DNA from: Ilumatobacteraceae bacterium
Lineage (GTDB): Bacteria; Actinomycetota; Acidimicrobiia; Acidimicrobiales; Ilumatobacteraceae
Length of the DNA: 64,000 nucleotides
Reading direction: 5' to 3'
Assembly (NCBI GenBank): GCA_044362135.1
Contig: JBIKHN010000001.1
Coordinates: forward strand, 111-64,110
Part shown: positions 2,351 to 41,855 of the stretch, in pieces
How positions within the stretch are numbered: position 1 is the stretch's first letter
Layout of the letters: each line of letters opens with the position of its first letter
Position numbers and translations under genes: made by a program
The notes under the pieces: generated by a model
The model's input: only the letters and a program-made list of their open reading frames with translations
What the model was told of the DNA's origin: nothing
The model's database searches: none

Positions 2351-3495
2351 TGACAGCAATGCTCGGTGTTCTTGGTGGTGGCCAACTTGGAAACTATTTC
2401 GTGCTCGCTGCCAACAACATGGGTTACAAAACAGCAGTTCTGGATCCTGACCCACATGCACCTGCGGGTGTGAACTCAGACGTTCATATCGTTGCTCCAT
2501 TCGACGATCTTGATGCTCTCAATCAACTTGCATCACTGTGCAGTGCTGTAACTGTCGAATTTGAGAACCCACCCGTGAAGTCACTCGCGTTTCTTGCGCA
2601 ATACGTAGTAGTCCGTCCCTCCCCTTTGTCGGTTGCAATTGCTCAAAATCGCCGTGAAGAAAAGCAGTTCTGTCAATCCATTGGGTTATCTGTTGCGCCA
2701 TACGAAGTACTCGAAACACAAGAAGACGTCGCAAGAATCATCAGCAACGGAGTCGCCCAGACGCATCTTGATCCGTTCAGCACTCCGCTCATCATGAAAA
2801 CGTGTCGAAATGGGTACGACGGCAAAGGGCAGCAGATCGTTCAGCAACTTTCCGACACCATGGAACATTGGAATTTGCTCGGAAAGGTCCCGTGCATTGT
2901 TGAACAAAAGATAGATCTTGATGCTGAGTTCTCCGTCATCATCGCTCGTGGTGAAAATGGCGAGATTGCCTCGTTCATGCCAACAGAGAATGTGCACGTT
3001 GATGGCATTCTGGATGTCAGCACTGCCCCATCGCATCTCGATTCTTATCTACTAGAACAAGGTCAATTAGCGGCAATCAACATTGCAGAGAGGCTCAACT
3101 ACATCGGCGTACTTGCTGTTGAGTTCTTTGTCTCAGACAACAAACTTTTTGTCAACGAACTTGCACCTCGCCCTCACAACAGCGGTCACTGGACTCTCGA
3201 TGCAGCCCGCACTAGCCAATTTGAACAGCAGGTGAGAGCGCTTGTTGGTGAGCCTCTCGGAGATCCATCCATGACCTGTTCTGCAGTTGCAATGGTCAAT
3301 CTTCTTGGTGAGCGATGGGCTAACGGAGAACCACTCTTTGAACTTGCTGCTGGCAATTCTTCTGCCCACTTACATCTTTACGGCAAGAAAAACGCTCGAG
3401 CAGGACGCAAAATGGGACACCTCACCGTTACGGGCGACCATGCAGATGCTGTAGTCCACAGCGCCGCGTCACTGCGCCAAGCCCTCACTCGCTAA
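2350..3495 (+). CDS. purK: N5-carboxyaminoimidazole ribonucleotide synthase (ATP-grasp)
   Basis: 381 aa. [11 protein letters not shown]-terminus and ATP-grasp body ([14 protein letters not shown]). TAATG overlap with purE. Confidence 0.9.
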
Positions 3496-4673
3496 ACGGA
3501 GCCGACGACGGTTTTCCCGCCGCGGATAACTGCTCGTACTTGCTGCACGCCTGGCCTGTACGCCAAGTGAATGTGGCTTTGCGCATCGAGAACCACCATG
3601 TCGGCTCGCGAGCCAACGCGCAGGTTTCCTACGTCGCTTCGGCGTAATGCTTGAGCGCCACCAGCCGTTGCCGACCACAGCGCTTGATCGCACGTCATGC
3701 CCATGTTGATCACTGCGAGTGCAATTACTAGCGGCATCGATGACGTGTACGACGAGCCAGGGTTGCAATCCGATGCCAAGGCAACTGTTACGCCGGCATC
3801 AATCAGTTTTCGTGCGTCAGGAAATGGTGAGCGCGTGCACAGTTCTGCCGTTGGAAGCAGCGTTGCCACAGTGGTTGCACGAGCGCCTGAAAGCGCATCG
3901 ATGTCTTGTTGTGAAAGGTGCGTGCAGTGATCGCACGATGCAACGCCTAGTTCCACTCCAAGTTGCACTCCTCCGCCCTGCTGCAACTGATTGGCGTGAA
4001 TACGCGTACCCAAACCTGCGGCCACACCGGTTTGCAGAATCGCACGAGCCTGGTCCACATCAAATGCACCACGGTCACAAAACACGTCAATCCACTTGGC
4101 ATTGCCCTTGCAGGCATCAAGCATTTCGCCTTGCACCAAAGCCACATAATCATCAGCGTTGGTGTCCGGCGGAACAACGTGGGCGCCCAAGAAGGTGGTT
4201 TCTGATGTTGCGGTTTTTGCGGCAACCAATGAACGCGCTTCGTCACGTACGGAAAGTCCGTAACCAGACTTCACCTCGAGCGTGGTGGTTCCCGATGCAA
4301 GCGCCTCGCTTGCCAACCGTGCAACATTTGCAGCAAGCAAATCGTCCGACGCGGCTCGTGTTGCTGCCATAGTGGTTTTGATGCCACCGGCCGCGTATGG
4401 CTTACCCTGCATGCGCGATTCAAACTCACGCGCACGGTCACCAGCAAATACCAAGTGCGTATGGCTATCAACAAAACCTGGAATCACAGCTCGGCCACCA
4501 ACATCAGTTGGCTTGCCGTCAAAGTGATTTGCTAATTCAGATTGCTTGCCAACCCACGAAATGTTTCCGGAGCTATCGGCAACCAAAGCCACATCGTGCA
4601 GTACGCCAAGCTTTCCTTGGCCAGCGGTTTCGTCGTTCGTTACTAAATGACCGATTCCGGTCAATGCAAACAT
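3492..4673 (-). CDS. hutI: imidazolonepropionase
   Basis: 393 aa amidohydrolase-fold protein. [22 protein letters not shown] and the rest match HutI. Last gene of the hut operon. Confidence 0.9.
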
Positions 4674-5248
4674 TACGAACCGTGTTTAGCAACCAGCGCT
4701 TTTGCACGCGCAACGAATGCGTCGTGGTGAAACTGGTTAAACGAATCCCATGTGGTGAGCGTGCCTGGGTCGGTCACTTTGTCAAGGAACAACAAACCAT
4801 CCAGGTGATCGAACTCATGCTGGTAGGTGCACGCCGTGAGGCCACGAACTTCGGCGTCGATGTCGTTGCCATGGCGGTCCCATGCCTTCACATGAATGCG
4901 AGTGTTACGTGCAACCTGACCACGAATACCCGGCACTGACAAACAGCCTTCCATGTTGTCGAACTTGTCGTCATCGAGGAACGTGACAACCGGGTTCACC
5001 AAAACGGTCAGTGGTACGCGCGGCTTGTATGGGTAACGCGGGTTGTTCTCTACTTCAACAGCACAAATGCGCTGGTGGCGAAGCACTTGCGTTGCTGCAA
5101 GACCAGCACCATTTGCATGACGCATGGTTTCGATCAAGTCATCAATGAATTGCTGCACTTCAGCAGATGCAAGCTCTTCGCGAGTTACTTCTTTCGCGAC
5201 AATTTTCAATTCTGGGTGACCAACAGTTGCAATTGGGAGAATAGCCAT
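4673..5248 (-). CDS. def: peptide deformylase homologue embedded in hut operon
   Basis: 191 aa with all three PDF motifs: [25 protein letters not shown]. 5 nt downstream of hutF and 1-nt overlap (TAATG) with hutI. Confidence 0.85.
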
Positions 5249-5253
5249 AGTGC

Positions 5254-6585
5254 TTACAGTGTAACGACAGCGGCAATTGCGTTGCGAAGCCCGGCAACTA
5301 CATCGCCAATCTCAGCGTGCTGGAAGTTGGCCACCACTTGCTTGCCTCCCACCCACACGTCACGCACGTCGCTTGGCGCAGCGGAATGCACAATGTGTGC
5401 TGCCCCATTGGCGCCATCGAACGAAGCAAGTCGCACCGAATCAAGCGACAGCGCAATGAAGTCGGCTGGCGCGCCAACCTGAATGCCATGAGTTCCCCAG
5501 CCAAGTGACGTTGCACCAACCGAAGTAGCGGCCGCAAGCAACGAGCTTGGCGTATGCAATCCACGCTTACCGGTAACTAGGCGTTCGTCGGTTTCAATAG
5601 CGCGTGTTTCTTCAAACATGTCAATGAATGCATTCGAATCGGTGCCTAGCGACAACGTGGCTCCCGCATCTCGGAGTGCCGCAGCAGGACCAACGCCATC
5701 GGCAAGGTCACGCTCGGTGGTTGGGCACAAGCACACGCATGTACGCGAACTTCCAAGCAACGCAATGTCGGTATCGGTGAGGTGCGTTGCGTGCACAGCG
5801 GTCATATGCGGGCCAAGCAGGCCAACATTGTCGAGCACTTGCGTCGGCGTCATTCCCGTTGCCGCAACACATGCAGCATTTTCTGCCGGCTGTTCGGACA
5901 CATGCAGGTGCACCACTTTGCCGTGACGATTAGCGACTACTTCTTCCAACTCTCGTGGGTGAACCGCGCGCACGCTGTGAGGCGCCATGCCAACGGTCCA
6001 GCCGTCGCCGCCTTCGCCAAGTGCGTCAACTCGGTCGAGCCAAGCATCAATGTTGCCGTCCGAGAATCGCTTCTGTTCCGCAAGCGGCTCTGGCTTGTCG
6101 AGTGCTGCGTGCAAGTACGCGACATCAAGCAACGCAAGTCGAATTCCTGCACGCTGTGCTGCTTGCACCATCGCAAGACCCATCTCATTCGGGTTCTTGT
6201 ACTTCGTACCGTCTGTGTTGTGGTGAATGTAATGGAACTCGCCCACTCCAGTAATTCCGGACAGCGCCATTTCAGCAAACGTCATGGTGGCAAGTTCACG
6301 ATACGAATCTGGTGTTAAACGATTCGCAATTTCATACATCGGCGTACGCCACGACCAGAAGTCACCAGTGCCGCCATGTGTGCGCCCACGCAATGCCCGA
6401 TGGAACGCATGGCTGTGTGCATTCACTAGTCCAGGCATCACCAAGCCATTTACAGCAACATCGCCGTCTTGCTTTGTGGCGTTGTCCTCAACCGCACTAA
6501 TCACACCGTTCGACACGGTGATACGCACGTTGGCAACAGCATGCTCGGCACCACGCCAAGCCCACTGTGCGAAATAGGTGGTCAT
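5254..6585 (-). CDS. hutF: formimidoylglutamate deiminase
   Basis: 443 aa amidohydrolase-superfamily protein. NAHSHAFHRALRGRTH near the N-terminus, as in HutF. Sits between hutU and hutI. Confidence 0.8.
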   Translation of the reverse strand: MTTYFAQWAWRGAEHAVANVRITVSNGVISAVEDNATKQDGDVAVNGLVMPGLVNAHSHAFHRALRGRTHGGTGDFWSWRTPMYEIANRLTPDSYRELATMTFAEMALSGITGVGEFHYIHHNTDGTKYKNPNEMGLAMVQAAQRAGIRLALLDVAYLHAALDKPEPLAEQKRFSDGNIDAWLDRVDALGEGGDGWTVGMAPHSVRAVHPRELEEVVANRHGKVVHLHVSEQPAENAACVAATGMTPTQVLDNVGLLGPHMTAVHATHLTDTDIALLGSSRTCVCLCPTTERDLADGVGPAAALRDAGATLSLGTDSNAFIDMFEETRAIETDERLVTGKRGLHTPSSLLAAATSVGATSLGWGTHGIQVGAPADFIALSLDSVRLASFDGANGAAHIVHSAAPSDVRDVWVGGKQVVANFQHAEIGDVVAGLRNAIAAVVTL

Positions 6586-6594
6586 CAGTACGGT

Positions 6595-8250
6595 TTAGCT
6601 CTCTCGCATTGGCAAGCGCACACCACGCTCGTCGGCAACGTCGATTGCTCGCTGGTAACCGGCATCGGCATGGCGAATAACGCCCATGCCAGGGTCGGAC
6701 AGCAACACGCGTGACAGTTTCTCGGCGGCCAAGTCGGTGCCGTCGGCAACAGCCACCATGCCTGCGTGAATACTGCGACCAATACCAACACCGCCACCGT
6801 GGTGAATGCTCACCCACGTTGCGCCTGCTGCCGTATTCACCAATGCATTCAGCAATGGCCAGTCGGCAATGGCGTCTGAGCCATCGATCATGGCTTCGGT
6901 TTCGCGATATGGCGAAGCAACTGAACCAGAGTCCAAATGGTCGCGACCAATCACGATTGGTGCCTTCAATTGACCCTTGCGCACCATTTCGTTGAAGCGA
7001 AGTCCAAGGCGATGGCGCTCGCCATAACCCAACCAACAAATTCGTGCAGGTAAGCCCTGGAATGCAACGCGCTCTTTGGCTAAGCGCATCCACTTATGCA
7101 AGCCATCGTCGTCAGGAAATTCTTCGAGCACTGCTTTATCGGTTGCAGCAATGTCTTCTGGGTCTCCTGAAAGCGCAACCCAACGGAATGGCCCACGACC
7201 TTCGCAGAACAACGGACGAATGTATGCAGGCAAGAAACCTGGGTAGTCGAACGCGCGGTCGTAACCACCAAGTTGTGCTTCACGACGCAACGAGTTGCCG
7301 TAGTCAAAAACTTCGGCGCCAGCATCCATGAATCCCACCATTGCTTGACAATGTGCAGCCATTGCTGCGCGCGAACGACGAATGAACTCTTCTGGGTTCT
7401 TCTTCAACATTTCTTGGGCAGCATCGTCGCTCAAGTCGTTTGGCATATATGACAACGGGTCATGCGCACTGGTTTGGTCAGTCACAATGTCGGCGGCGAA
7501 ACCCATCTGCAACAACTTCGGAAACATGTCTGCGGCATTGCCAACAACACCAACTGAAAGCCTGCGCTTTTCTGCTTTTGCTTTTTCACATCGTGCAACT
7601 GCATCTTCAAGCGAGTCGGCAACTTCATCGAGGTAACGAGTTTCAACGCGACGATTTACACGCCATGCGTCAACGTCAATGCATAATGCAACACCGTCGT
7701 TCATGGTGACAGCGAGTGGTTGCGCTCCACCCATTCCACCAAGACCTGCAGTCAGCGTGATGGTTCCAGCAAGTGTTCCATTGAACTTGCGACGTGCAAT
7801 TTCGGCGAAGCACTCGTATGTGCCCTGCAAAATTCCTTGCGTACCGATGTAGATCCATGAACCGGCAGTCATTTGGCCGTACATGGTGAGACCCATTTGT
7901 TCTAAGCGACGGAACTCGTCCCATGTTGCCCAGTCGCCCACCAAGTTGGAGTTCGCCAACAACACGCGTGGCGCCCATTCGTGCGTGCGGAACACACCGA
8001 CAGGTTTGCCCGACTGCACCAACATGGTTTCGTCTGGCTTCATGGTTTGCATGGTGCGCAACATGGCGTCGTATGCGTCCCAACTGCGTGCAGCGCGACC
8101 CGTTCCGCCGTACACCACCAGGTCGTCTGGTCGCTCGGCAACGTCGGGATCGAGGTTGTTCTGCAACATTCGATAGGGGGCTTCAATTTGCCAGTTGGCA
8201 CATGACAACTGGGTTCCGCGTGGGGCAATTACAGGGCGTGGTCCGGACAT
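6595..8250 (-). CDS. hutU: urocanate hydratase
   Basis: 551 aa. Full-length similarity to urocanase recognisable ([19 protein letters not shown] segments). Confidence 0.95.
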
Positions 8251-8274
8251 AAGGCTTCTAGTCTCGCCTATTGC

Positions 8275-9081
8275 CTAGCGTCGGGGCAATACGGCTTGCG
8301 CCCGAGCAACTAGCGCCGGAATGAGCGAATAGTCGCTTGCGCTCATTGCCACTGCGCCATCAATACCAATATCGGCACGCGCGCCAGCCAGTTCGGGACG
8401 TGAAAAAACTTCAAGCACCGCAGATTGCAGTGCGCCAAATTCGGCAGTTCGCACTTTTGATATGTGCATAGGCGTGGCGGGCACAAGTGGCCCATGGCCA
8501 ATAACGCGCAAACCCGCAGTGAGCGCTGGACGATGTCGTTGCAACAACTGAAACGTGCCCGGATCAATAGAGGCAAAGTCGGCACGCTTGTCTTGTAAGA
8601 ACTGCAGGCTCTTGGCGTGTCCTTCGCTTTCGACGTACGGCAACACGAACGATACATCAGCACCTATATCGCTCAGCGCGACGCCAAGACTGCACCACCC
8701 ACTCAAACTTTGCATGTTCGTAATGACGGGTTGCAGGCCACCCACTTCGCTCAGTGATGTGACGCCGAGCTCTTCTCGCGCGACAATAACCGTTTGATAC
8801 CAACCGCGCTCATCGCTGATGCCAGTCCACTTCAACGTGGCGACGATGTCTACGTAATCATGCAGGTCTTCCACAAACGGCAATCCACATGACTGGCTGA
8901 ACAACGTTGCATCGTTTTTCCACATGTGCATCAGGTCGGCATGAATTGAACTCTCAGGAAATGCTGGCTGCGATGCACCTCCAAGTTTCGTGAATGTAAT
9001 GCTCAGTGCGTCAAGTATTGCCTTCGTTGAAGCCTGGACTTCAGGAAAGTCGTACATCGGCAGCGAATTGCTGCGCGTCAT
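8275..9081 (-). CDS. cytosolic PhnD/SsuA-like (type 2 binding-protein fold) protein, function unknown
   Basis: 268 aa, starts ..LPMYDFPE.., has SQSCGLPFV. No signal peptide or lipobox. Family call from memory of similarly annotated proteins. Confidence 0.5.
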   Translation of the reverse strand: MTRSNSLPMYDFPEVQASTKAILDALSITFTKLGGASQPAFPESSIHADLMHMWKNDATLFSQSCGLPFVEDLHDYVDIVATLKWTGISDERGWYQTVIVAREELGVTSLSEVGGLQPVITNMQSLSGWCSLGVALSDIGADVSFVLPYVESEGHAKSLQFLQDKRADFASIDPGTFQLLQRHRPALTAGLRVIGHGPLVPATPMHISKVRTAEFGALQSAVLEVFSRPELAGARADIGIDGAVAMSASDYSLIPALVARAQAVLPRR

Positions 9082-9642
9082 TTAATCAGCCGCAACAAAT
9101 TTTGCTTTGGCAAACACTGCACGCACTCGGTCTTCAAAGTGCTCTAGTGGCAATGTGTCGTAGTTCGGGTCAAATGCCTTCTGATCCCATTCGTCGGCAA
9201 ACTTTGCTGCCAAGTCGTATGCAGGGTGACCTTCGTGCTTCGTGCGCGCATCGGGGTTCATGCCGAAGTGACCGTAGTAATGACGTCCCTGAAAATCTTG
9301 ATGCGCCTCAATCATGAAATGCACTTCTGGTCGAACATATGGCTTCAAAATTGCCGCTGCAATAGCCGGGTGATTCGGAACACTGATGGCCTTGCCAATG
9401 TCGTGACACAACGCGGCAACTACTACTTCATCGTCTGCTCCTGCGCGCTCTGCCATGGTGGCGGTTTGCAGCGCGTGCGTGAGTTGGTCGGTGACGAAAC
9501 CGTCGATGATTGTGTCCATGCCACGCAGCATGTTCAAAATTCCTTCGGCTACTCGCGGCTGATTTTTTGCGGTCTCAGCGCCAATATTGAGCCACTCTTC
9601 TTTTGTCGACACATCCATGCTGGTGAAGGTTGCATTAGCCAT
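9082..9642 (-). CDS. HD-domain protein, COG4341/PhnZ-like family
   Basis: 186 aa. HALQTATMAERAGADDEVVVAALCHDIGK (HD motif) and C-terminal ..WDQKAFDP.. Its stop abuts the ATG of the next gene. Confidence 0.6.
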   Translation of the reverse strand: MANATFTSMDVSTKEEWLNIGAETAKNQPRVAEGILNMLRGMDTIIDGFVTDQLTHALQTATMAERAGADDEVVVAALCHDIGKAISVPNHPAIAAAILKPYVRPEVHFMIEAHQDFQGRHYYGHFGMNPDARTKHEGHPAYDLAAKFADEWDQKAFDPNYDTLPLEHFEDRVRAVFAKAKFVAAD

Positions 9643-9721
9643 CCCCTTATTCCACCACCATCACCACCATTAGTCAAGGTCAATCCATCATGCTGTCTGA
9701 AGCACTCATAGAGTCATTGGT

Positions 9722-10876
9722 GTGAAGCGTCTATACGTCATCATCTGCCTAGCAATTGGGCTTACCGCTTGTACACAGCCCGAAACCACTCAGGCTCCTA
9801 TTTCAACACTTGCCGAAACCACAACGACTACAACGACCACAACCCTCGTACCACCAGACGGAAAAGGTTCAGATGAACGAGAGCTTGTCTTGGTTGACAC
9901 CCTCTCAAGCGATGAGTTGCAGCCGAAGAGCATCGTGCACTCAGGAAATGGGTTGTTCTTTTCACAGAACATGATGTACCGACACAACATCAGCGTGTTT
10001 GATCGTCAAGGAAAGTTGGTCACCACGATTGACGACAAGGTCGATCTCAAAGCCTTCGGCGTCGACATTGCCGGTCGATCTTCGGTAGTGCGCGGTTCAC
10101 CTGTTGAAGCAGCATTTTCTCCTGATTCACAATTTGGTTACATCTCTAACTACGTGATGTATGGCAAAGGATGGGACCCAAGCGCAGATGACAAATGCCA
10201 AGGCAAAGACCGCGATCAAAGTTTTGTCTATCGCGTAAATACTTCAACGTTTGCAATTGATCGTGTCATCGGAGTTGGCGCTGTTCCCAAGTACCTAGCG
10301 GTTTCTCCAAATAACAAATTTGTCGTTGTCTCCAATTTTTGCTCGCTCGATGTATCCATTATTGATGTTGCAACCAACTCTGAAATCAAGCGCATAGAAG
10401 TCGGGCTACACCCGCGAGGTATTGCAATCACCAATGATTCATCGATTGCCTATGTCACCGTAATGGGTGGTGGCGTCATCGTTGCCATTAACTTGAACGA
10501 CTACTCAACTCGAACGTTAGAGAGTGCTGGCTACACACCAAGACATCTCGTGCTATCTCCAGACAATTCAATTCTGTATGTTTCAAATAACTTGGCTGGT
10601 CAAGTTCGTGCTATCGATCCAATCTCCGACACGCTCTTGCAATCCGTTACGACGGGAACTCAACCGCGCACGATGGTCATGTCTGACGATGGTCTCAGTC
10701 TGTACGTTGTTAATTACCGAAGTGACAATTTGGTCAAATTGCGCACCAGCGACATGCAGATCATTCAAACGATCAAAACAGGGCATCATCCAGTTGGCAT
10801 TACCTACGATGCAGAAATGCGTCGTGTGTGGGTTGCTAATTACTCAGGAACGCTGAGTATTTTTGAGGATCGATAA
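9722..10876 (+). CDS. lipoprotein with YVTN/YncE-like beta-propeller repeats
   Basis: 384 aa. GTG start, lipobox GLTAC, poly-Thr linker (TTTTTTTTT). Repeated ..P(R/V)G(I/M)a.s.D...(L)YV.N.. units. Confidence 0.6.
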   Translation: MKRLYVIICLAIGLTACTQPETTQAPISTLAETTTTTTTTTLVPPDGKGSDERELVLVDTLSSDELQPKSIVHSGNGLFFSQNMMYRHNISVFDRQGKLVTTIDDKVDLKAFGVDIAGRSSVVRGSPVEAAFSPDSQFGYISNYVMYGKGWDPSADDKCQGKDRDQSFVYRVNTSTFAIDRVIGVGAVPKYLAVSPNNKFVVVSNFCSLDVSIIDVATNSEIKRIEVGLHPRGIAITNDSSIAYVTVMGGGVIVAINLNDYSTRTLESAGYTPRHLVLSPDNSILYVSNNLAGQVRAIDPISDTLLQSVTTGTQPRTMVMSDDGLSLYVVNYRSDNLVKLRTSDMQIIQTIKTGHHPVGITYDAEMRRVWVANYSGTLSIFEDR

Positions 10877-12677: not shown

Positions 12678-13636
12678 TACTTTTTGCCCTTGAGAGGCTC
12701 CCACCACCAGCGATTATCGCGGTACCACTTCACAGTTTCTTCAAGTGCTTCGTCGAGTGAGCGCTCGCGCTTCCAACCCAACGTGGTGATCTTGGCAATG
12801 TCTACCGAATACCTGCGATCGTGACCCTTGCGGTCTTCAACGTATTGCACGCTTGATTCATCTTTGCCATGTAGTGCGAGCAGCTTGTCCACCAATACAC
12901 GGTTTGCAGTTTCGTTTCCTGCGCCAATGTTGTAGATCTCGCCAACATTGCCCTTTTCCAACACCAAATGCACGCCTGTGCAATGGTCGTCTACATACAA
13001 CCAGTCGCGCTCGTTCAAGCCATCGCCGTACAACGGAATCTGCTTGCCATCAAGCAAGTTAGTGGTGAACAACGGAATTGCTTTTTCTGGGTATTGGTAC
13101 GGACCAAAATTGTTGGTGCATCGAGTAACCGCGACTGGCAAACCGTGTGTTGCGTGATACGACAACGCAATCAGGTCACTACCCGCTTTACTTGCCGAAT
13201 ACGGCGAGCGCGGCTCAAGTCCGTCGGTTTCTTTCGACGAGCCAACTTCAACCGAACCGTACACCTCATCAGTGCCAATGTGCACCACACGCTGCATGTC
13301 TAAACGTCGCGCTGCGTCCATGATCACGTTGGTACCGAAACAGTTGGTGAGAATGAAGTCTTCGCTGCCCTCGATTGAACGATCCACGTGGCTTTCTGCA
13401 GCAAAGTGAACCACTGCATCGTGCCCACGCATTGCGGCATCTACATCGCCAGGTTGGCAAATATTGCCCTTCACGAATGAGTAACGCTTGTTGTCGTCAA
13501 CATCTTTCAATGTGGACAAGTTGCCTGCGTAGGTAAGTGAGTCAAACACGGTGACTTCGTGGTCGGAATTTGCAAGCACCCAGCGCACGTAGTTTGAGCC
13601 AATAAAGCCGGCGCCGCCGGTAACAAAAATCTTCAT
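12677..13636 (-). CDS. rmlB: dTDP-glucose 4,6-dehydratase
   Basis: 319 aa. MKIFVTGGAGFIGSNYV, YSASKAGSD catalytic YxxxK. Confidence 0.95.
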   Translation of the reverse strand: MKIFVTGGAGFIGSNYVRWVLANSDHEVTVFDSLTYAGNLSTLKDVDDNKRYSFVKGNICQPGDVDAAMRGHDAVVHFAAESHVDRSIEGSEDFILTNCFGTNVIMDAARRLDMQRVVHIGTDEVYGSVEVGSSKETDGLEPRSPYSASKAGSDLIALSYHATHGLPVAVTRCTNNFGPYQYPEKAIPLFTTNLLDGKQIPLYGDGLNERDWLYVDDHCTGVHLVLEKGNVGEIYNIGAGNETANRVLVDKLLALHGKDESSVQYVEDRKGHDRRYSVDIAKITTLGWKRERSLDEALEETVKWYRDNRWWWEPLKGKK

Positions 13637-13644
13637 GTGCTAGA

Positions 13645-14211
13645 TCAGGTCCTGAGTGAAAAGTGCGGCTGAAACTGCGGGTCAATGTTGTCGCGCGTGG
13701 GGTTGTCCTGATCGCGCTTGCTCAAAATTGGGTTTGCAAAGCCCCAGTCGGCCTTCACTGCTGGGTCGTTGTACGCAAGGCCACGCTCGTCGGCCGGGTT
13801 GTAATAGCTGTCCACCAAATAGGTAATGGTCATGTCGGTAAGCGAAGCAAAACCGTGCGCAACACCTGGTGGAATGAAAATGCCGCGGTGATCATGCGAG
13901 CCGTCTGCCTGAGTTCCTAAATCGATTACCTGTGTTGCGCCATCGGTTGGCGAACCTGTGCGCAAGTCATGCAACACCACGCGGCACGAACCATATGGCA
14001 CGTACCAGTAGTCGCTTTGGTGCAAGTGATAGTGCAATCCAACAACGCATCCCGCTTGACGATCGCCGCGGTTGCCCTGAATCATTTCGCGGCCGAGTGG
14101 AAACCACTGGCGACGATACGTTTCGATAAAGAAGCCACGCTCGTCTTTGAACATGGCAGGTTCAACAATCTGCACGTCTTTGATCACGGTTGATTCAGTA
14201 ATGACAGCCAT
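13645..14211 (-). CDS. rmlC: dTDP-4-dehydrorhamnose 3,5-epimerase
   Basis: 188 aa cupin. DERGFF, RGLHYH-like (VVGLHYHLHQ) and GVAHGF motifs. Confidence 0.9.
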   Translation of the reverse strand: MAVITESTVIKDVQIVEPAMFKDERGFFIETYRRQWFPLGREMIQGNRGDRQAGCVVGLHYHLHQSDYWYVPYGSCRVVLHDLRTGSPTDGATQVIDLGTQADGSHDHRGIFIPPGVAHGFASLTDMTITYLVDSYYNPADERGLAYNDPAVKADWGFANPILSKRDQDNPTRDNIDPQFQPHFSLRT

Positions 14212-15296
14212 TATTCAAGTTCTACTTTCGAGTCGTCGCCCAACATGAGGCGTAGTGCACGAGGTTTCTGCTCCGAACGCGTTACTTGCACATCGCGACC
14301 AATGAGCGAGTCGGTGAGACGTTCAATGCCAACAATGCTAGAACCATCCAACACCACGCTGTGCTCCATTTCGGAATGTTCAACTTTGCAATTGCGACCA
14401 AGCGACGTATATGGCCCGATGTATGCGTGATCAATAACTGACCCAGCACCAATAACTACTGGTCCGCGAATGCGCGAGTTGCGAACAACCGCACCCTTTT
14501 CAATTACCACACGACCTTCAATTTGTGACGAGGCATCAACGTCGCCTTCGTTGCGTGCCTGCAAGACTTCAAGCACCAGACGATTACATTCAAGCAACGG
14601 GTCTTTTTTGCCGGTGTCAATCCACCAACCTTCAAGCACCTTGTGATTCACCACATAGCCCTGTTCAACAATCCATTGAATGGCATCGGTGATTTCAAGT
14701 TCACCGCGAGGCGATGGCTTAATTGCACGCACTGCATCGTTAATGGTTTTGTCAAACAAGTACACACCAACGAGCGCCAAGTCGGACGGTGGGTTCTGTG
14801 GCTTTTCCACCAACCGAACAACGTGACCTTCGGCTGTTACTTCGGCAACACCAAACTGACGCGGGTCGTCAACATGGCACAACAAAATTTGTGCGGTTGG
14901 CGCCTTTGGTCCGCCTGCTTTGCGTGCAGCTTCAAACTCATCAACAAACTCATTCAACCCTTGCTCGAGCATGTTGTCGCCCAAGTACATGACGAAATCG
15001 TCGTCGCCCAAGAAGTCGTGTGCAATAAGTACGCAGTGCGCCAAACCAAGCGGAGCATCTTGCGGGATGTAGGTGACCTGTACGCCAAACTGCGAGCCAT
15101 CACCTACTGCTGCACGAATCTCTTTGCCCGTCTCGCCAATAATGATGCCGATCTCGCGAATGCCCGCCTTGGCCATTGCCTCAATGCCATAGAACAAAAT
15201 GGGCTTGTTGGCGATTGGCACCAGTTGTTTGGCGCTGGTGTGGGTGATGGGCCTAAGGCGCGTTCCCGCACCGCCCGAAAGAATGAGACCCTTCAT
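14211..15296 (-). CDS. rmlA: glucose-1-phosphate thymidylyltransferase, long form with C-terminal left-handed beta-helix
   Basis: 361 aa. MKGLILSGGAGTRLRPITHTSAKQLVPIANKP. C-terminal hexapeptide-repeat region. 1-nt overlap with rmlC. Confidence 0.85.
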   Translation of the reverse strand: MKGLILSGGAGTRLRPITHTSAKQLVPIANKPILFYGIEAMAKAGIREIGIIIGETGKEIRAAVGDGSQFGVQVTYIPQDAPLGLAHCVLIAHDFLGDDDFVMYLGDNMLEQGLNEFVDEFEAARKAGGPKAPTAQILLCHVDDPRQFGVAEVTAEGHVVRLVEKPQNPPSDLALVGVYLFDKTINDAVRAIKPSPRGELEITDAIQWIVEQGYVVNHKVLEGWWIDTGKKDPLLECNRLVLEVLQARNEGDVDASSQIEGRVVIEKGAVVRNSRIRGPVVIGAGSVIDHAYIGPYTSLGRNCKVEHSEMEHSVVLDGSSIVGIERLTDSLIGRDVQVTRSEQKPRALRLMLGDDSKVELE

Positions 15297-17312: not shown

Positions 17313-18524
17313 GTGAGTAAGCCAGAGTTCAATCCGTTTAACCCGGAGTTTCGCGCTCATCCGTACCCGTTTTACGACGCACTGCGTTCGCACGAACCTG
17401 TGCACACCACCGAGTTCGGTATGGTGGTACTAACGCGTTACGAGGATGTCTCGACAACGCTGAAAAGCGCAGACTTCAGTCGCGACATTGAAAGGTATTC
17501 AACGCAAGCAACTTCAGAAGCGCGTCAGCGCCGACGTGAAATGCAGCGCGAACGTACAAAGTCCATTCTGAACCTCGACCCACCAGACCACACTCGCTTG
17601 CGTCGCATCGTGTCGAAATCGTTTACGCCAAGCGCAATGGAAAAACTTCGCGGTCGCATTCAGCAATTAGTTGACACAGTTCTTGATGCCGCTCAAGAGC
17701 GCGGGTCCATTGAACTGATCGACGACCTTGCATTCCCGGTTCCATTTCAAGTGATTTCCGACTTGCTCGCCATGCCAACTGAGCGCGCCGACGAAATGCG
17801 TGAATGGTCGCAGATCATTACCAATTCACTCGAGCCAACTGCAACCGATGAAGAACTCGCACAGTCCGATGCAGCAGTTGCCCAACTGGTTCCCTACCTC
17901 ACATCAATCATTGAAGAGCGTCGCAAGAATTTGGGCGACGACATGTTGTCGAGTTTGATTACCGCAGAAGAAGCGGGCGACAAAATGACCACTGATGAAC
18001 TGATGGCATTCCTCGTGTTGCTGTACATCGCCGGTCATGAAACCACAGTGAACCTCATTGGCAACTCAACACTTGCGCTGTTGCGCCACCCTGACCAAGC
18101 TTCACTCGTGCATCAACACGGGCTCAATTCGCAAGCGATTGATGAGTTGTTGCGCTTTGACGGACCAGTGCAACACACCGTGCGTATTCCGCTAAAGCCA
18201 GTGCAGTACAAAGCACAAGGCAACACCTTCACCATCGAGCCTGGAACCGTGGTGCTCACTTCACTTGGCGCCGCGAATCACGACCCCTCGATTTTTGAAG
18301 CGCCACATGAGTTGCGCCTCGACCGCCCTAACTCGCATCGCCATATGGCATTTGCTTCAGGCATTCACTATTGCTTGGGTTCAGCACTCGCCAAACTGGA
18401 AACCGAAGTTGCTGTTGGATCGCTCTTTCAACGCTTCCCCGGCATGCAGATTGTTGGCACGCCTTCATGGCGCGATCGCCTCACCATTCGAGGCGTAAAC
18501 CAGTTGCAGCTCAGTCTTTTGTAA
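17313..18524 (+). CDS. cytochrome P450
   Basis: ORF 17193..18524 trimmed to the in-frame GTG 17313 just after the SDR stop. AGHETT I-helix, ELLRF (ExxR) and heme loop FASGIHYCLGSALA. Confidence 0.85.
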   Translation: MSKPEFNPFNPEFRAHPYPFYDALRSHEPVHTTEFGMVVLTRYEDVSTTLKSADFSRDIERYSTQATSEARQRRREMQRERTKSILNLDPPDHTRLRRIVSKSFTPSAMEKLRGRIQQLVDTVLDAAQERGSIELIDDLAFPVPFQVISDLLAMPTERADEMREWSQIITNSLEPTATDEELAQSDAAVAQLVPYLTSIIEERRKNLGDDMLSSLITAEEAGDKMTTDELMAFLVLLYIAGHETTVNLIGNSTLALLRHPDQASLVHQHGLNSQAIDELLRFDGPVQHTVRIPLKPVQYKAQGNTFTIEPGTVVLTSLGAANHDPSIFEAPHELRLDRPNSHRHMAFASGIHYCLGSALAKLETEVAVGSLFQRFPGMQIVGTPSWRDRLTIRGVNQLQLSLL

Positions 18525-19383
18525 GACGAGCAATCAAACTGCTGGTGTCCCAGCGCTTGCCGCCCATGGCAATGACTTCTTCGTAAAACTTGTCGACCAT
18601 TTCGGTCATGGCTAGCTGTGCCCCATTGCGCTTTGCTTCATCAAAACAAATAGCCAAGTCTTTGCGCATCCATTCCACGGCAAACCCAAATTCAAATTCG
18701 TCGCGGACCATTGTCTTTGCGCGATTCTCCATTTGCCACGACTGTGCGGCGCCTTTGGAAATGACATCAACGACATCGTCTGGGTTCAACCCTGCGCGCA
18801 TGGCGAAGTTCAACGCTTCAGACAAGCCTTGCGCAATACCAGCGATGCAAATTTGATTGACCATCTTTGCCAACTGGCCAGAGCCCGCATTGCCCAACAA
18901 TTGACAACGCTTGGCATACGCATCGATAACAGTGTTCACGAGGTCAAACGATGTCTGGTCGTTGCTTCCACACATCACGGTGAGTTGTCCGTTTTCAGCA
19001 CCTGCTTGACCACCAGAAACTGGAGCATCGACAAACCCTGCGCCAACAGCAGCACATGCATCGGCCAATTCGCGCGCAAGCGTTGCAGATGCTGTGGTGT
19101 GATCAACAAGTACTGAACCAGATTTCAATCCGGCAAGCACGCCATCATGGCCAAAGACCACCGAGCGAACGTCGTTGTCGTTACCGACACACATGAACAC
19201 GATGTCGCTCTGTTGTGCAACTTCGCGCGGAGTCAATGCCCGCGAACCACCATGCTCGGCAACCCACGCATCTGCTTTCTCAGTTGTGCGGTTGTACACC
19301 ACAACGTCGTGACCGGCTTTTGCAAGATGGCGAGCCATTGGCCCACCCATAATTCCTAAACCGACGTAGCCAATGTTTGCCAC
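18511..19383 (-). CDS. NAD(P)-dependent 3-hydroxyisobutyrate dehydrogenase-family oxidoreductase
   Basis: 290 aa. IGYVGLGIMGGPMARHL N-terminus, 6-PGDH-like C-domain. 14-nt convergent overlap with the P450 gene. Confidence 0.8.
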   Translation of the reverse strand: MANIGYVGLGIMGGPMARHLAKAGHDVVVYNRTTEKADAWVAEHGGSRALTPREVAQQSDIVFMCVGNDNDVRSVVFGHDGVLAGLKSGSVLVDHTTASATLARELADACAAVGAGFVDAPVSGGQAGAENGQLTVMCGSNDQTSFDLVNTVIDAYAKRCQLLGNAGSGQLAKMVNQICIAGIAQGLSEALNFAMRAGLNPDDVVDVISKGAAQSWQMENRAKTMVRDEFEFGFAVEWMRKDLAICFDEAKRNGAQLAMTEMVDKFYEEVIAMGGKRWDTSSLIARLTKD

Positions 19384-19385
19384 GT

Positions 19386-20036
19386 CTACTTCTTTTTCGC
19401 TACGGCCTTAGCAGGAGCTTTCGCAGCTTTGGCAACCTTTGCAGCTTTAGCAACTGGCTTTGCTGCATCCTTTGCAACGGCTTTAGAAACAGGCTTGGCG
19501 TCATCTTTTGGAATCTGCTTCACGATCTTTGCGCCCTTTGAAGGCTTCAACACACCCTGCTCAAGTGCTGCATCTAGCCACACTTCTGCAGCATCGGTTG
19601 AAACTTTGAGCGCAGGTGAAATTTCTGAAATCAAGTTGATACGAGCGCGGTCGTACATGGTTTTTTCTGCTGCCGACAATGCACTGTCACGGTCACGTGC
19701 AGCCAAGTTACGCACCACTTCGGCAACTTGATACACGTCGCCACTCTTCAACTTTTCTTGGTGGTTCTTAAAACGACGCGACCAGTTTGCTGGCACGCGT
19801 GGGTCGGCCTTTGAAAGCACTGAACGCAAGTCCTCAAGTTCGGACTTCGAAACCGGCGGGCGCACACCAACTTGGTTGGCCATTGCGGTTGGTACCGAAA
19901 GGGTCATCTCATTGATGACGGTCTTCAAAATGAGGTACTCCTGAACCGCGCCAAATGCCTTCATTCGCTTAATGCCGTGCACAATGCAGGCACCGTGTTG
20001 GGGATAAATGACGGTGTCACCTTTTTTGAATTTCAC
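19386..20036 (-). CDS. carD: CarD/CdnL-family RNAP-binding regulator with Lys/Ala-rich C-terminal tail
   Basis: 216 aa. MKFKKGDTVIYPQHGACIV.. Tudor-like N-domain. The last ~55 aa are KPSKGAKIV..AKPVAKAAKVAKAAKAPAKAVAKKK. Confidence 0.85.
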   Translation of the reverse strand: MKFKKGDTVIYPQHGACIVHGIKRMKAFGAVQEYLILKTVINEMTLSVPTAMANQVGVRPPVSKSELEDLRSVLSKADPRVPANWSRRFKNHQEKLKSGDVYQVAEVVRNLAARDRDSALSAAEKTMYDRARINLISEISPALKVSTDAAEVWLDAALEQGVLKPSKGAKIVKQIPKDDAKPVSKAVAKDAAKPVAKAAKVAKAAKAPAKAVAKKK

Positions 20037-20131
20037 TGAAGCGACCTCTCTACAGACTGACCCCGAAAGGATAGGCGTTCAGAGCCCCCAACCCACAATG
20101 CGCGCGATTTTTACTGGTGAAAATGCAATTG

Positions 20132-20205
20132 CGCCCCCGGTAGGAATCGAACCTACGACCTACGGATTAGAAGTCCGCCGCTCTATCCATCTGAGCTACG
20201 GGAGC
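20132..20205 (-). tRNA. tRNA-Arg (anticodon TCT)
   Basis: Hand-folded 74-nt cloverleaf: acceptor GCTCCCG/CGGGGGC, D arm GCTC..GAGC, anticodon stem GCGGA/TCCGT with loop CTTCTAA, T arm GTAGG-TTCGATT-CCTAC. Confidence 0.9.
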
Positions 20206-20250
20206 AATCTGCTTGCTCAAATCTACCGCCCACTCAACTACCGTTTAGCC

Positions 20251-21123
20251 GTGCGTTCACGACTGTTAGTGCTGTTTGCGGCAATCTGTTTCGCCACAAC
20301 TGGCACATCACGCGCACTAGGACCAGACAGCGCAACCTCCCTTGGCGTTGCGGCCATCCGATTCTTTGTTGGCGCCATCGCACTTTTCGCAATTACCACG
20401 CTTATCCGTAAGCCACATGTCACCACGGCAACTCTCCCCTTATATATATGGATCATTGCTGGTTTCGGTCAGGCGATGTATGGGGCAACATTCTTTGCCG
20501 CCGTCCACGAGACTGGAGTGGCCATTGGAACAGTTGTGGCTCTTGGCTCGGCACCAATTCTTACAGGCGTGTTGTCTGCAATCTTGTTTCGTTCACTTCC
20601 CACTCAAACGTGGATACTGGCAACCGCTGCTGCAATCGGAGGAATGTCGCTCATTGTGCTGTCAGGTAACGACACAAACGTTTCAGTAATTGGAATTCTG
20701 TACGCGCTTGGCGCAGGGTTGGGTTACGCACTCTTCGCACTCGCCAGTAAACGCATTGTCCAGTCAGGCGTTGCGAGCGATGTAGCCATGTCACGCGTGT
20801 TCGGCATTGCTGCAGTCATGCTTGCTCCAACATTATTTTTTGTCAACACTGATTGGGTATTTACGCAAGGTGGAATCTCACTCGGGCTATGGCTTGGAAT
20901 TGTGACTGTGGCACTGGCGTACTGGGCATATGCAAGCGGACTTGCACACCTAGAACCGCGTGAAACAACGATGATCACCCTTGCCGAACCAGTTGTTGCA
21001 ACGATGCTTGGCGCCATTGTTCTTGATGAGCGACCAGCAACACTTGCATGGATTGGCATTGTTGTCGTCATCGTTGCACTGGCATACGAGTCGCTAAACA
21101 ATTCATCAAATGTGAAACACTAA
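20251..21123 (+). CDS. EamA/DMT-family transporter
   Basis: ORF 20008..21123 overlaps the tRNA, so it is trimmed to the in-frame GTG 20251 (VRSRLLVLFAAICFATTG..). About 10 TM segments in two EamA-like halves. Ends 4 nt before purH. Confidence 0.65.
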   Translation: MRSRLLVLFAAICFATTGTSRALGPDSATSLGVAAIRFFVGAIALFAITTLIRKPHVTTATLPLYIWIIAGFGQAMYGATFFAAVHETGVAIGTVVALGSAPILTGVLSAILFRSLPTQTWILATAAAIGGMSLIVLSGNDTNVSVIGILYALGAGLGYALFALASKRIVQSGVASDVAMSRVFGIAAVMLAPTLFFVNTDWVFTQGGISLGLWLGIVTVALAYWAYASGLAHLEPRETTMITLAEPVVATMLGAIVLDERPATLAWIGIVVVIVALAYESLNNSSNVKH

Positions 21124-27189: not shown

Positions 27190-28613
27190 AACGTCAGCAC
27201 CCTTTTTCAGGAGATGCTCCGCGCGAAGAATGCGGAGTTCTCGCCATTTCGTCAACAGAATCAGATGCGGCTCAACTCTCTTTCTTTGGATTGTTCGCTT
27301 TGCAGCATCGAGGCCAAGAAGCAGCCGGCATTGCAGTTGCCGATGGCAAACAAGCACGGCTACATAAAGACGTTGGTCTTGTTGGTCAGGTTTTTACTCC
27401 GCACACACTTGCGCCACTCGTTGGCCAACATGCAATTGGCCACACGCGCTATTCCACAACCGGCGCACCTGGCGCCCGCAATGCTCAACCATTCCTGGTC
27501 GAAACCATTCATGGCCCACTTGCCGTTGCACACAATGGCAACCTGGTGAACGCAGCGGAACTGCGCGAGGAGTTGCTCACTAAAGGTTTCGGGCTTACTG
27601 CAAGCAGCGATACCGAAGTGATCACGCTCATGCTTGCAAGCGCAGGTGGCTCTTCATGGGAAACACGCCTCGAACGCACACTTCCAGCTTGGCAAGGGGC
27701 GTATTCATTGGTCATCCTTGCCGAAAATCGTGTAATTGGCGTACGTGACCCGTGGGGTTTCCGTCCTTTGTCTCTTGGCAAGTTGCCAAATGGCGGATGG
27801 GCGTTTGCATCGGAAACATGCGCGCTACGAACACTGGATTGCACCGACATTAGTGAGGTGCAGCCTGGCGAAATCGTGACAGCCCAAGGCACCGAACTCA
27901 TTCGCAAACAGGCACAAATTCCACACGTGCCGCAGGCACGATGCACATTTGAATTTGTCTACTTCTCGCGACCCGATTCTCAGTGGGATAACCGCAGCGT
28001 GCACTCGGTTCGCCAACGACTAGGTGAACAACTGGCCATAGAGGCACTAGTTGATGCAGACGTCGTTGTACCAGTGCCCGACTCGTCTATTCCCGCAGCC
28101 GTAGGTTTCTCTCGCGTCAGCGGAATTCCGTACAACGACGGTCTCATTAAGAATCGATACATCGGTCGCACATTTATTGAACCAACTCAAAGCATGCGAG
28201 CAAAGGGTGTGGCGATGAAGTTCAACGCTCTTGCCGAAAATTTAGAAGGCAAGCGCGTCATCATGATTGATGATTCGCTGGTTCGTGGAACTACTGCTGG
28301 TCGACTTGTCTCACTACTTCGCGATGCAGGAGCCACCGAAGTGCACGTGCGTATTACCTGCCCACCCATTACACACGCATGTCACTTTGGTGTTGATATG
28401 GGTCACGATGATGACCTGATTTCATCGCGACTTTCATTAGAGGAACTGCGCAAAGAAATTGGTGCAGACTCACTTGCATTCTTATCGCTTGAGGGAATGA
28501 TGAAGGCTGTAGGCAAAGAAGATGGCTATTGCAATGCGTGCTTCACCGGCGACTACCCGATCACCATTACAAAGCGATTGAGCAAAGGAATGTTTGATCA
28601 GGTGTTGGCATGA
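27186..28613 (+). CDS. purF: amidophosphoribosyltransferase
   Basis: 475 aa. N-terminal nucleophile Cys (EECGVLAI), PRTase motif VIMIDDSLVRGTT. Confidence 0.95.
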   Translation: MKRQHPFSGDAPREECGVLAISSTESDAAQLSFFGLFALQHRGQEAAGIAVADGKQARLHKDVGLVGQVFTPHTLAPLVGQHAIGHTRYSTTGAPGARNAQPFLVETIHGPLAVAHNGNLVNAAELREELLTKGFGLTASSDTEVITLMLASAGGSSWETRLERTLPAWQGAYSLVILAENRVIGVRDPWGFRPLSLGKLPNGGWAFASETCALRTLDCTDISEVQPGEIVTAQGTELIRKQAQIPHVPQARCTFEFVYFSRPDSQWDNRSVHSVRQRLGEQLAIEALVDADVVVPVPDSSIPAAVGFSRVSGIPYNDGLIKNRYIGRTFIEPTQSMRAKGVAMKFNALAENLEGKRVIMIDDSLVRGTTAGRLVSLLRDAGATEVHVRITCPPITHACHFGVDMGHDDDLISSRLSLEELRKEIGADSLAFLSLEGMMKAVGKEDGYCNACFTGDYPITITKRLSKGMFDQVLA

Positions 28614-30871: not shown

Positions 30872-31458
30872 CCACGCGGCTTGTGGTGTTGGCATCGGGA
30901 AACGGTTCTAATCTGCAGGCCATTATTGACGCGTGTGAAACTGGATCATTGAACGCGCAAGTTGTTGCGGTCATCTCAGACAACAGCAATGCCTACGCAT
31001 TGCAGCGAGCCGCATCACACAACGCTGCTTGCCGCGTAGTGAACACCACAAATACCAGCCGAAATGAATTCAATGTTCAACTTGCTCATACAGTGAATGA
31101 ATTCAAACCAGACATCGTTGTGCTCGCGGGGTTCATGCGGTTGCTCACTTTGGACTTTCTCACACACTTTCCAAATCGCGTGGTCAATATTCACCCAGCG
31201 TTACCTGGCGAACTACCGGGAACCAATGCCATTGCTCGAGCCTTTGACGAATTCACTGCGGGCAAGCGCACACATACCGGCGTGATGGTGCATTTTGTGC
31301 CCAATGAAGGTGTTGACAACGGCCCTGTCATTGATAGCGCCGTTGTTCCTATTTACCCAACAGACTCGCTTGCCGACTTAGAACAACGCATGCATGCAAC
31401 CGAGCACCAACTTCTTATTACCGCACTCATCCAACTGACCAAGGAGCACACCCCATGA
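30868..31458 (+). CDS. purN: GAR formyltransferase
   Basis: 196 aa. [26 protein letters not shown]-like (NIHPALPGE). GTGA overlap with purD-purM. Confidence 0.9.
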
Positions 31459-36419: not shown

Positions 36420-36492
36420 GCGTTCGTAGCTCAATGGATAGAGCATCTGACTTCGGATCAGAGGGTTGGCGGTTCGAGTCCGTCCGAGCGCG
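36420..36492 (+). tRNA. tRNA-Arg (anticodon TCG)
   Basis: Hand-folded 73-nt cloverleaf: acceptor GCGTTCG/CGAGCGC, D arm GCTC..GAGC, anticodon stem TCTGA/TCAGA with loop CTTCGGA, T arm GGCGG-TTCGAGT-CCGTC. Confidence 0.85.
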
Positions 36493-36496
36493 CTGA
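36465..36496 (+). repeat. 32-bp direct repeat, copy 1 (T arm to 3' end of tRNA-Arg plus 4 nt)
   Basis: GTTGGCGGTTCGAGTCCGTCCGAGCGCGCTGA, identical to 38018..38049. Confidence 0.85.
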
Positions 36497-41824: not shown

Positions 41825-41855
41825 AGATAATGAATAAGCATCAGGAATTCGCTTT

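Follow-up and report, generated by a model that had tools for sequence, protein, structure and literature searches.

How do freshwater Acidimicrobiia complete the degradation of histidine when their hut clusters include hutF and no recognisable hutG, and why does a gene of the peptide deformylase (PDF) family stand among these genes? This question is raised by a 64,000-nucleotide stretch, referred to below as the window, of contig JBIKHN010000001.1 (assembly GCA_044362135.1) from a member of the uncultured freshwater Ilumatobacteraceae (acIV-type Acidimicrobiia), in which a PDF homologue of 191 amino acids (aa) is encoded between hutF and hutI. HutF converts N-formimidoyl-L-glutamate to N-formyl-L-glutamate, and the release of glutamate then needs hydrolysis of the formamide (EC 3.5.1.68), which Pseudomonas carries out with a HutG of the FGase family. 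PDF performs the same type of hydrolysis on N-formyl-Met peptides. Genome comparisons make it likely that the 191-aa protein represents a specialised PDF branch and is the last enzyme of the five-step HutF route of histidine and urocanate degradation. We infer that its substrate would be N-formyl-L-glutamate and that it is an enzyme dedicated to this step rather than one that also serves as housekeeping PDF.

The hut operon of the window

Four genes on the minus strand, hutU, hutF, the PDF gene and hutI, follow each other closely (table 1). According to the open reading frame (ORF) list and the minus-strand sequence, hutU and hutF are separated by 9 nucleotides (nt) and hutF and the PDF gene by 5 nt, while the stop codon of the PDF gene overlaps the ATG of hutI by one base (TAATG, in the context gTAATGt). 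The coordinates, gaps and overlap given for these genes in the initial annotation match exactly, and its gene names stand as well, as all four proteins pass curated cut-offs. The possibility that the gene called hutF encodes another amidohydrolase was rejected, because its product scores above two hutF equivalog models. The five-step pathway is thus represented in the window by hutU, hutF and hutI.

Searches of the 64-kb window, consisting of tblastn with PDF and Fmt queries and of Pfam and NCBIfam scans of 39 ORFs, detected no FGase, no M20 gene, no arginase-type hutG, no hutH, no second PDF and no fmt, and they bear out the earlier statement that no FGase-like ORF is present there. The sole gene with a formyltransferase domain is purN, and the remaining genes are recognisable as pur, rml and tad genes.

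Conservation in Ilumatobacteraceae

A scan of one genome per GTDB species, for which an alignment of close PDF relatives served as the query, returned 80 loci, and 63 of these belong to metagenome-assembled genomes of Ilumatobacteraceae/acIV with a PDF identity of 71-100%. As judged by tblastn, the PDF gene is immediately preceded by hutF and immediately followed by hutI in 63 of 63 species wherever the contig extends, and hutU stands before hutF. The hutF-PDF-hutI synteny, which the initial annotation had proposed to look for in relatives, is therefore kept in every Ilumatobacteraceae species sampled, and such an arrangement is far beyond chance.

The flanks of this core vary. The genes purK/purE follow hutI in the closest relatives only, and genes for an HD-domain protein and a PhnD-like protein precede hutU in most loci of the clade in which the PDF is at least 77% identical. 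In the clade with 71-73% identity (about 24 species) these two genes are replaced upstream of hutU by hutD (PF05962, 116 bits), and the cluster reads hutD-hutU-hutF-PDF-hutI-(fatty-acid-desaturase-like)-hutH, which amounts to every hut function except classical hutG.

Linkage in other gene orders

The wider set of PDF relatives was obtained by a search with an Acidimicrobiia cluster protein, by context look-ups and by a metagenome scan; at high-GC loci, where longest-ORF calling gave spurious antisense ORFs, the genes were taken from tblastn. Subfamily members that share no more than about 50% identity with the window protein likewise lie inside hut clusters, and there the gene orders are different. 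Besides the hutU-hutF-PDF-hutI order of the window, which is found in 63 Ilumatobacteraceae loci, the order hutH-hutU-PDF-hutF-hutI occurs in many soil and sediment contigs (loci L090, L099, L101, L105, L108 and L112; as variants, L110 and L111 have a gap between hutU and the PDF gene, and the contigs of L115 and L117 stop short of hutF and hutI, respectively). Single loci show hutH-PDF-hutF-hutI (L086), hutC-hutU-hutI-hutF-PDF-hutH (L088), hutH-hutU-hutF-hutI-PDF (L102), hutU-hutF-hutI-PDF-hutH (L171), hutU-hutF-hutI-DUF222-PDF (L170) and hutF-hutI-PDF (L169, on a contig of 6.3 Mb with TonB-receptor genes). The cluster of L088 begins with a GntR/UTRA regulator of the HutC type. At least seven gene orders with hut linkage can thus be distinguished, and since linkage appears in at least six orders other than that of the window, inherited synteny cannot explain it; its maintenance across this number of orders and across large sequence divergence requires selection for co-location.

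Among the 138 subfamily members with judgeable context 113 are hut-linked, and three later look-ups add three linked copies. Many of the 113 are close relatives, and the independent evidence consists of the distinct gene orders and the deep lineages. Both can be seen in a neighbour-joining tree (a distance tree with no support values) that was built from 127 dereplicated sequences and marked with their contexts: its backbone is made up of several deep lineages, with a separate gene order in each. The phylogeny suggested by the initial annotation accordingly groups the hut-linked copies as the backbone of a distinct subfamily, within which the unlinked copies of the tree form one derived clade.

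HutF as the constant partner

The gene hutF is present beside the PDF gene wherever the contig reaches. In three further lineages the partner amidohydrolases are HutF by the curated equivalog model (564-612 bits, cut-off 362). The identity of HutF between lineages falls to about 46-50%. As the partners are true HutF proteins, N-formylglutamate is the expected intermediate of these clusters. No FGase, M20 or intact arginase-family gene was found inside the hut clusters examined, and the sole arginase-family trace is an 85-aa fragment at a distance of 4 kb from the L169 cluster. The genes within the clusters abut or overlap and therefore leave no room for a further hydrolase. Neither fmt nor a second PDF was found within 8-10 kb of any hut-linked copy; around the loci on megabase contigs (L011, L053, L086 and L169-L171) the flanks examined were ±10 kb. 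In the sister clade and in other lineages the cluster includes hutH.

In these otherwise complete clusters one gene is unexplained and one step unassigned; the gene encodes a formyl-amide hydrolase and the step is the hydrolysis of a formyl amide, which points to the PDF branch as the N-formylglutamate deformylase. The proposed pathway would proceed as follows. HutU would hydrate urocanate, HutI would open imidazolone propionate to N-formimidoyl-L-glutamate, HutF would deiminate the latter to N-formyl-L-glutamate, and the PDF-like enzyme would hydrolyse the formamide bond of this compound to give L-glutamate and formate. The last reaction would use a metal bound by Cys-His-His, an activated water and a catalytic Glu, as PDF does on formyl-Met peptides, and the PDF-like enzyme would replace the unrelated FGase-type HutG by non-orthologous displacement.

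The context ties the PDF homologue to the hut genes and not to one substrate, so an enzyme of the same pathway acting on another compound has to be considered, for example on formimidoylglutamate, on formamide or on N-formylisoglutamine, which arises spontaneously from imidazolone propionate. A gene for an N,N-dimethylformamidase-beta-like protein (PF20254, 248 bits), situated directly after hutI in L086, demonstrates that such clusters can acquire further formamide hydrolases. However, that gene was found in one locus only, HutF, a curated equivalog, accompanies the PDF gene wherever the contig reaches, and N-formyl-L-glutamate is the one intermediate for which the clusters hold no enzyme; another substrate is very unlikely.

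Two further observations concern these loci. Histidinol-dehydrogenase paralogues flank the hut clusters of two lineages, L086 and L088 (L088 3777-5078); the spans of the histidinol-dehydrogenase and dimethylformamidase-like genes in L086 are 6808-8133, 13061-15211 and 17530-18897. The hutF of L088 (8700-10000) is split over three frames in a long-read-derived contig, probably owing to homopolymer sequencing errors rather than because it is a real pseudogene.

Family, motifs and fold of the PDF homologue

In Pfam and NCBIfam the window protein matches PDF models alone, with no match to the FGase family. It reaches 120.3 bits with TIGR00079 (cut-off 103.95) and 145.5 bits with NF001159 (cut-off 125). 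The TIGR00079 margin is small for the subfamily as a whole, the members of which score 107-124 bits, compared with 165 bits for the canonical fmt-linked def of L073. The three metal-binding and catalytic motifs of PDF, which the protein had been said to keep, are intact: GAGLAATQ at residues 47-54, EGCLSVPG at 100-107 and QHEFDHLDG at 143-151. The Cys, both His, the Glu, Gln, Gly and Leu of these motifs are invariant in the 113 hut-linked sequences. The AlphaFold2 model of the protein has a predicted local distance difference test (pLDDT) score of 95.5 and a predicted template-modelling (pTM) score of 0.91. The top Foldseek matches of the model are all PDFs, among them the Leptospira enzyme 1sv2 with template-modelling (TM) scores of 0.87/0.97, a root-mean-square deviation of 1.0 Å and 39% identity.

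The subfamily, as delimited by an exhaustive HMMER search (90 representative clusters at E <= 1e-30), consists of proteins of about 190 aa that their sources name 'peptide deformylase'. Its motifs 1, 2 and 3 read G-A-G-[IL]-A-A-x-Q, N-x-E-G-C-L-S-V-P and G-L-[ST]-A-[GCA]-T-x-Q-H-E-x-D-H-L, respectively. Two additional characteristics are a loop insertion, N-x-R-Y-P-Y-K-P-x-x-P-L-T-V, in which RYPYKP is invariant, and a C-terminal helix of 20 residues with the signature T-W-x-x-F. Plasmid-borne copies were sought as a sign of an accessory gene, and this idea was discarded, as all matches were ordinary PDFs of less than 44% identity.

In plant PDF the hydrophobic S1' residues that accommodate the Met side chain are Ile42 (Ile44 in E. 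coli), Phe58 and Ile130, and the equivalents of Ile44 and Ile128 are key hydrophobic residues of this pocket (Fieulaine et al., PMC3101196). The subfamily has different residues in these columns (E. coli numbering, Ec): Ec-Ile44 is replaced by Ala in all sequences that cover the position, Ec-Ile128 by Cys, Gly or Ala, Ec-Cys129 by Thr in all context-resolved members, and Ec-Ile86 mostly by Asn. These residues are smaller or more polar, and therefore the pocket is predicted to be wider and more polar. Such an altered S1' pocket argues for a changed substrate in a suggestive, though not decisive, manner.

Copies outside hut clusters

The unlinked clade of the tree is sister to the Ilumatobacteraceae clade, and every named genome in it, that of Labilithrix luteola DSM 27648 for example, is from Myxococcota. 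The sister position suggests horizontal transfer between the two phyla. It is represented in the species scan by 17 of the 80 loci (L068-L085 except L071; 63-67% identity), which have no hut genes nearby, and two metagenomic contigs likewise lack nearby hut genes. The stand-alone copies also include L003, L005 and L144, and together with those of the scan, L073 among them, they are 63-69% identical to the window protein. In L073 and L144 a canonical def-fmt pair is located 4-5 kb from the subfamily copy, so that the subfamily is represented there by an extra paralogue and not by the fmt-linked housekeeping lineage. Around the unlinked Myxococcota copies no neighbouring gene was found to be conserved, artefactual antisense ORFs aside. 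Five of these loci stand divergent to nuoA-D, an uninformative arrangement.

The single unlinked copy from Acidimicrobiia, L087 (1497-10615), lies beside genes for formate dehydrogenase subunits, FdhD and formate-tetrahydrofolate ligase. These formate-handling neighbours fit an enzyme that would release formate. Taking linked and unlinked copies together, the balance leans towards the whole branch of about 190-aa RYPYKP proteins, including the stand-alone Myxococcota copies, being N-formyl-L-glutamate deformylases.

Points against the assignment and alternative functions

Several points weigh against an N-formylglutamate deformylase. The evidence comes from genomes, transcripts and a predicted structure. 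The window protein passes a curated equivalog model named 'peptide deformylase', and its nearest solved relative, the Leptospira PDF, is a genuine PDF. Twenty-five subfamily members are without hut linkage (24 in the derived clade, and L087), and they carry the same pocket signature as the linked ones. Ala at Ec-44 is also present in 26 of the 81 nearest ordinary PDFs. No cationic residue was found in the S1' pocket columns, and nothing in them is evident that would bind the carboxylates of glutamate; for carboxylate binding, Arg71 and Lys75, both invariant in the loop insertion, can be named as candidates only. In the clade of the window hutH was not found within 10 kb of the operon. Finally, the searches for hutG and def covered the window and the flanks of the loci, so a hutG may lie further away, and any other def may be lacking.

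On the one hand, some of these points would suit a PDF of the ordinary kind (the one housekeeping def of the cell or an additional copy), whose location among the hut genes has no functional meaning and results, for example, from hitch-hiking. The intact motifs and fold, the scores with TIGR00079 and PF01327, a nearest solved structure that is an active PDF and the unlinked Myxococcota members are all in line with such a function, and no second def was found in Acidimicrobiia in the locus flanks searched. Among the names of 20 representative PDFs there was no canonical Acidimicrobiia def; the Acidimicrobiia cluster P0271 was found there instead. On the other hand, the linkage persists through at least seven gene orders in spite of large divergence of the sequences, and in L088 the copy stands within a cluster regulated by a HutC-type protein, where an essential gene of translation would hardly be expected. 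Neither observation fits easily with a position that is purely incidental. In addition, no fmt accompanies the hut-linked copies, L073 and L144 have a canonical def-fmt pair apart from the subfamily copy, and the S1' residues are unlike those of classical PDFs. An ordinary PDF without a role in the pathway is therefore unlikely.

A bifunctional protein would combine both roles: the only PDF of the cell would also deformylate N-formylglutamate, and this moonlighting activity would keep it in the hut cluster. In its favour, the genomes are of a streamlined type (a copy is carried by contig_262 of ERZ25039530, 1.86 Mb, and by DAIODP010000001.1, 2.02 Mb), the flanks of the hut-linked copies contain no second PDF, and the catalytic apparatus is fully PDF-like. 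The same regulated cluster of L088 speaks against it, however, as control of an essential gene by a catabolic hut regulator is improbable. In Myxococcota, moreover, a canonical def occurs alongside the subfamily copy, and the methionine pocket is remodelled. PDFs need a peptide chain beyond Met for good activity, from which dual specificity is not expected. A moonlighting PDF is thus quite improbable. Even as the sole PDF of its cell, the protein would need a role in the pathway to account for its lasting proximity to the hut genes. Recruitment of a PDF to deformylate N-formylglutamate, as the initial annotation had proposed, is supported at the level of genome comparison by the 63 of 63 synteny, the six or more other gene orders, the subfamily tree and the partnership with HutF.

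Transcription in rivers and lakes

Metatranscriptomes of rivers and lakes contain contigs that are 90-99% identical to the PDF gene, to hutU and to the HD-domain gene. For the PDF gene, word depths of 20-44 were obtained in the two best runs (X1 and X2) and of 3-15 in X3 and X4. One transcript contig (5232-5463) bridges the junction of hutF and the PDF gene, and another (6353-6698) that of hutU and hutF. These contigs fit co-transcription of the operon, for which they are weak evidence, since variants are lost from contigs and the samples may contain some DNA. The operon being transcribed in rivers and lakes makes it relevant to the turnover of dissolved organic nitrogen by acIV Actinobacteria.

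Neighbouring genes and other features of the window

The PhnD-like gene is situated on the same strand as hutU, 24 nt upstream of it, and its product has no obvious signal peptide. The HD-domain gene abuts it on the upstream side, head-to-tail and with a gap of zero, and a divergent intergenic region follows (table 1). The PhnD-like gene is a possible extra member of the operon and the HD-domain gene possibly the first gene of the transcription unit; their role may be, for example, the supply of urocanate or a related imidazole compound. A promoter and terminator scan of positions 3300-9900 gave no sigma-70-like sites and two terminator-like matches, fewer than in shuffles; for an actinobacterium such a result carries no information.

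A membrane protein of the fatty-acid-desaturase family (PF00487) is encoded near the hut cluster in most Ilumatobacteraceae loci with sufficient flanks, for example at L134 9061-9972 and L001 11791-12672. Its gene is located between hutI and hutH in the 71-73% clade and 1-6 kb downstream of hutI in the clade of the window, and a partial copy lies at the left edge of the window.

Elsewhere in the window, purD and purM are fused and purN overlaps as the next gene, so that the domain order purD-purM-purN is that of the eukaryotic trifunctional GART enzyme. One tRNA-Arg gene lies within the 5' part of the ORF of an EamA transporter, and the real start of the transporter is therefore further downstream. 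The M14 zinc-carboxypeptidase-like protein has a weak match to the catalytic domain of the succinylglutamate desuccinylase/aspartoacylase family, which comprises N-acyl-amino-acid hydrolases; it is encoded 52 kb from the hut operon and was not considered a candidate for hutG.

Table 1. Features of the 64-kb window discussed in the text, the hut operon first
Feature	Position	Strand	Size	Evidence
hutU, urocanate hydratase	8250-6595	minus	551 aa	TIGR01228, 914 bits (cut-off 375); three Urocanase Pfam domains
hutF, formimidoylglutamate deiminase	6585-5254	minus	443 aa	NF006681, 573 bits (cut-off 362); TIGR02022, 446 bits (cut-off 413)
PDF homologue, candidate N-formyl-L-glutamate deformylase	5248-4673	minus	191 aa	PF01327, 154 bits (cut-off 22.8)
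hutI, imidazolonepropionase	4673-3492	minus	393 aa	TIGR01224, 369 bits (cut-off 298)
PhnD-like 'Phosphonate-bd' protein	8275-9081	minus	268 aa	PF12974, 52 bits
HD-domain protein	9082-9642	minus	186 aa	PF01966, 32 bits; weak PhnZ/MIOX-type matches
Divergent intergenic region	9643-9721		79 nt	
Fatty-acid-desaturase-family protein, partial	1-723	minus		PF00487
tRNA-Arg(TCT)	20131-20205	minus		
EamA transporter ORF	20008-21123	plus		
purD-purM fusion and overlapping purN	28610-31458	plus	753 aa (fusion, one protein)	GARS_N/A/C and AIRS/AIRS_C
tRNA-Arg, anticodon TCG	36420-36493			
Two tandem paralogous membrane proteins	40448-43226	plus	about 457 aa	no Pfam match
M14 zinc-carboxypeptidase-like protein	60596-62011	plus		weak match to succinylglutamate desuccinylase/aspartoacylase catalytic domain

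Significance

The PDF branch offers a concrete and testable candidate for the missing enzyme of the HutF route. If the assignment is true, histidine catabolism would have a third, unrelated type of enzyme for its last step, in addition to the HutG of the FGase family and that of the arginase family, and the branch would be a case of non-orthologous displacement in which a translation-associated fold was recruited to amino-acid catabolism. The PDF fold, thought to be dedicated to nascent proteins, would then have a physiological small-molecule substrate. Thousands of genes automatically annotated as 'peptide deformylase' would be misnamed, including the stand-alone copies of Myxococcota. As TIGR00079 is passed by a few bits, the proteins receive this label, and metabolic reconstructions of abundant freshwater and soil Acidimicrobiia consequently present an incomplete histidine/urocanate pathway together with an apparent extra def. 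PDF is an antibiotic target, and a paralogue with a remodelled S1' pocket is useful for the study of specificity determinants.

Comparison with known systems

The closest characterised relative is the PDF of Leptospira interrogans (EC 3.5.1.88; PDB 1sv2/1y6h/1szz). The window protein shares with it the fold, the metal ligands, the catalytic Cys, two His, Glu and Gln and the enlarged CD-loop insertion, which is mobile in the Leptospira enzyme, and the presumed type of reaction, hydrolysis of an N-formyl amide, is that of PDF as well. In contrast to classical PDF, the window protein is encoded in hut clusters and not next to fmt, its subfamily has Ala, Cys/Gly/Ala, Thr and Asn in place of Ile, Ile, Cys and Ile in the pocket, and the invariant RYPYKP loop and the long C-terminal T-W-x-x-F helix are peculiar to the subfamily. 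The presumed substrate is also different, a free N-formyl amino acid instead of a nascent peptide.

With the FGase-type HutG (EC 3.5.1.68; PF05013, TIGR02017), known from Pseudomonas-type operons, the protein would share the reaction proposed here, the step downstream of HutF. Both are encoded within hut clusters together with hutU, hutI, hutF, hutH and hutC/hutD, but they are unrelated in sequence and fold. The arginase-family HutG, a formimidoylglutamase of the four-step pathway in Bacillus and enterics, is likewise a terminal hut enzyme that yields glutamate; it takes formimidoylglutamate and so makes HutF unnecessary, whereas HutF is present here wherever the contigs reach.

The same gap, a HutF route without FGase in Actinobacteria, had earlier been assigned to a COG0624/M20 protein, which belongs to another family; no M20 gene is present in the clusters studied here. 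The M20 protein of Streptomyces avermitilis had no deformylase activity and the prediction was withdrawn (Gerdes et al., PMC3223725), and the deformylase step of the actinobacterial HutF route is therefore still unassigned in the literature searched. The PDF branch, if correctly assigned, would fill the place left by that candidate. The initial annotation was not aware of such a use of PDF being described, and in agreement with this the full-text literature search found no paper linking a peptide deformylase to N-formylglutamate or the hut pathway, and neither NCBIfam (June 2026) nor Pfam holds a model for this branch. The fold and the reaction are each known from these systems; it is their pairing that is new.

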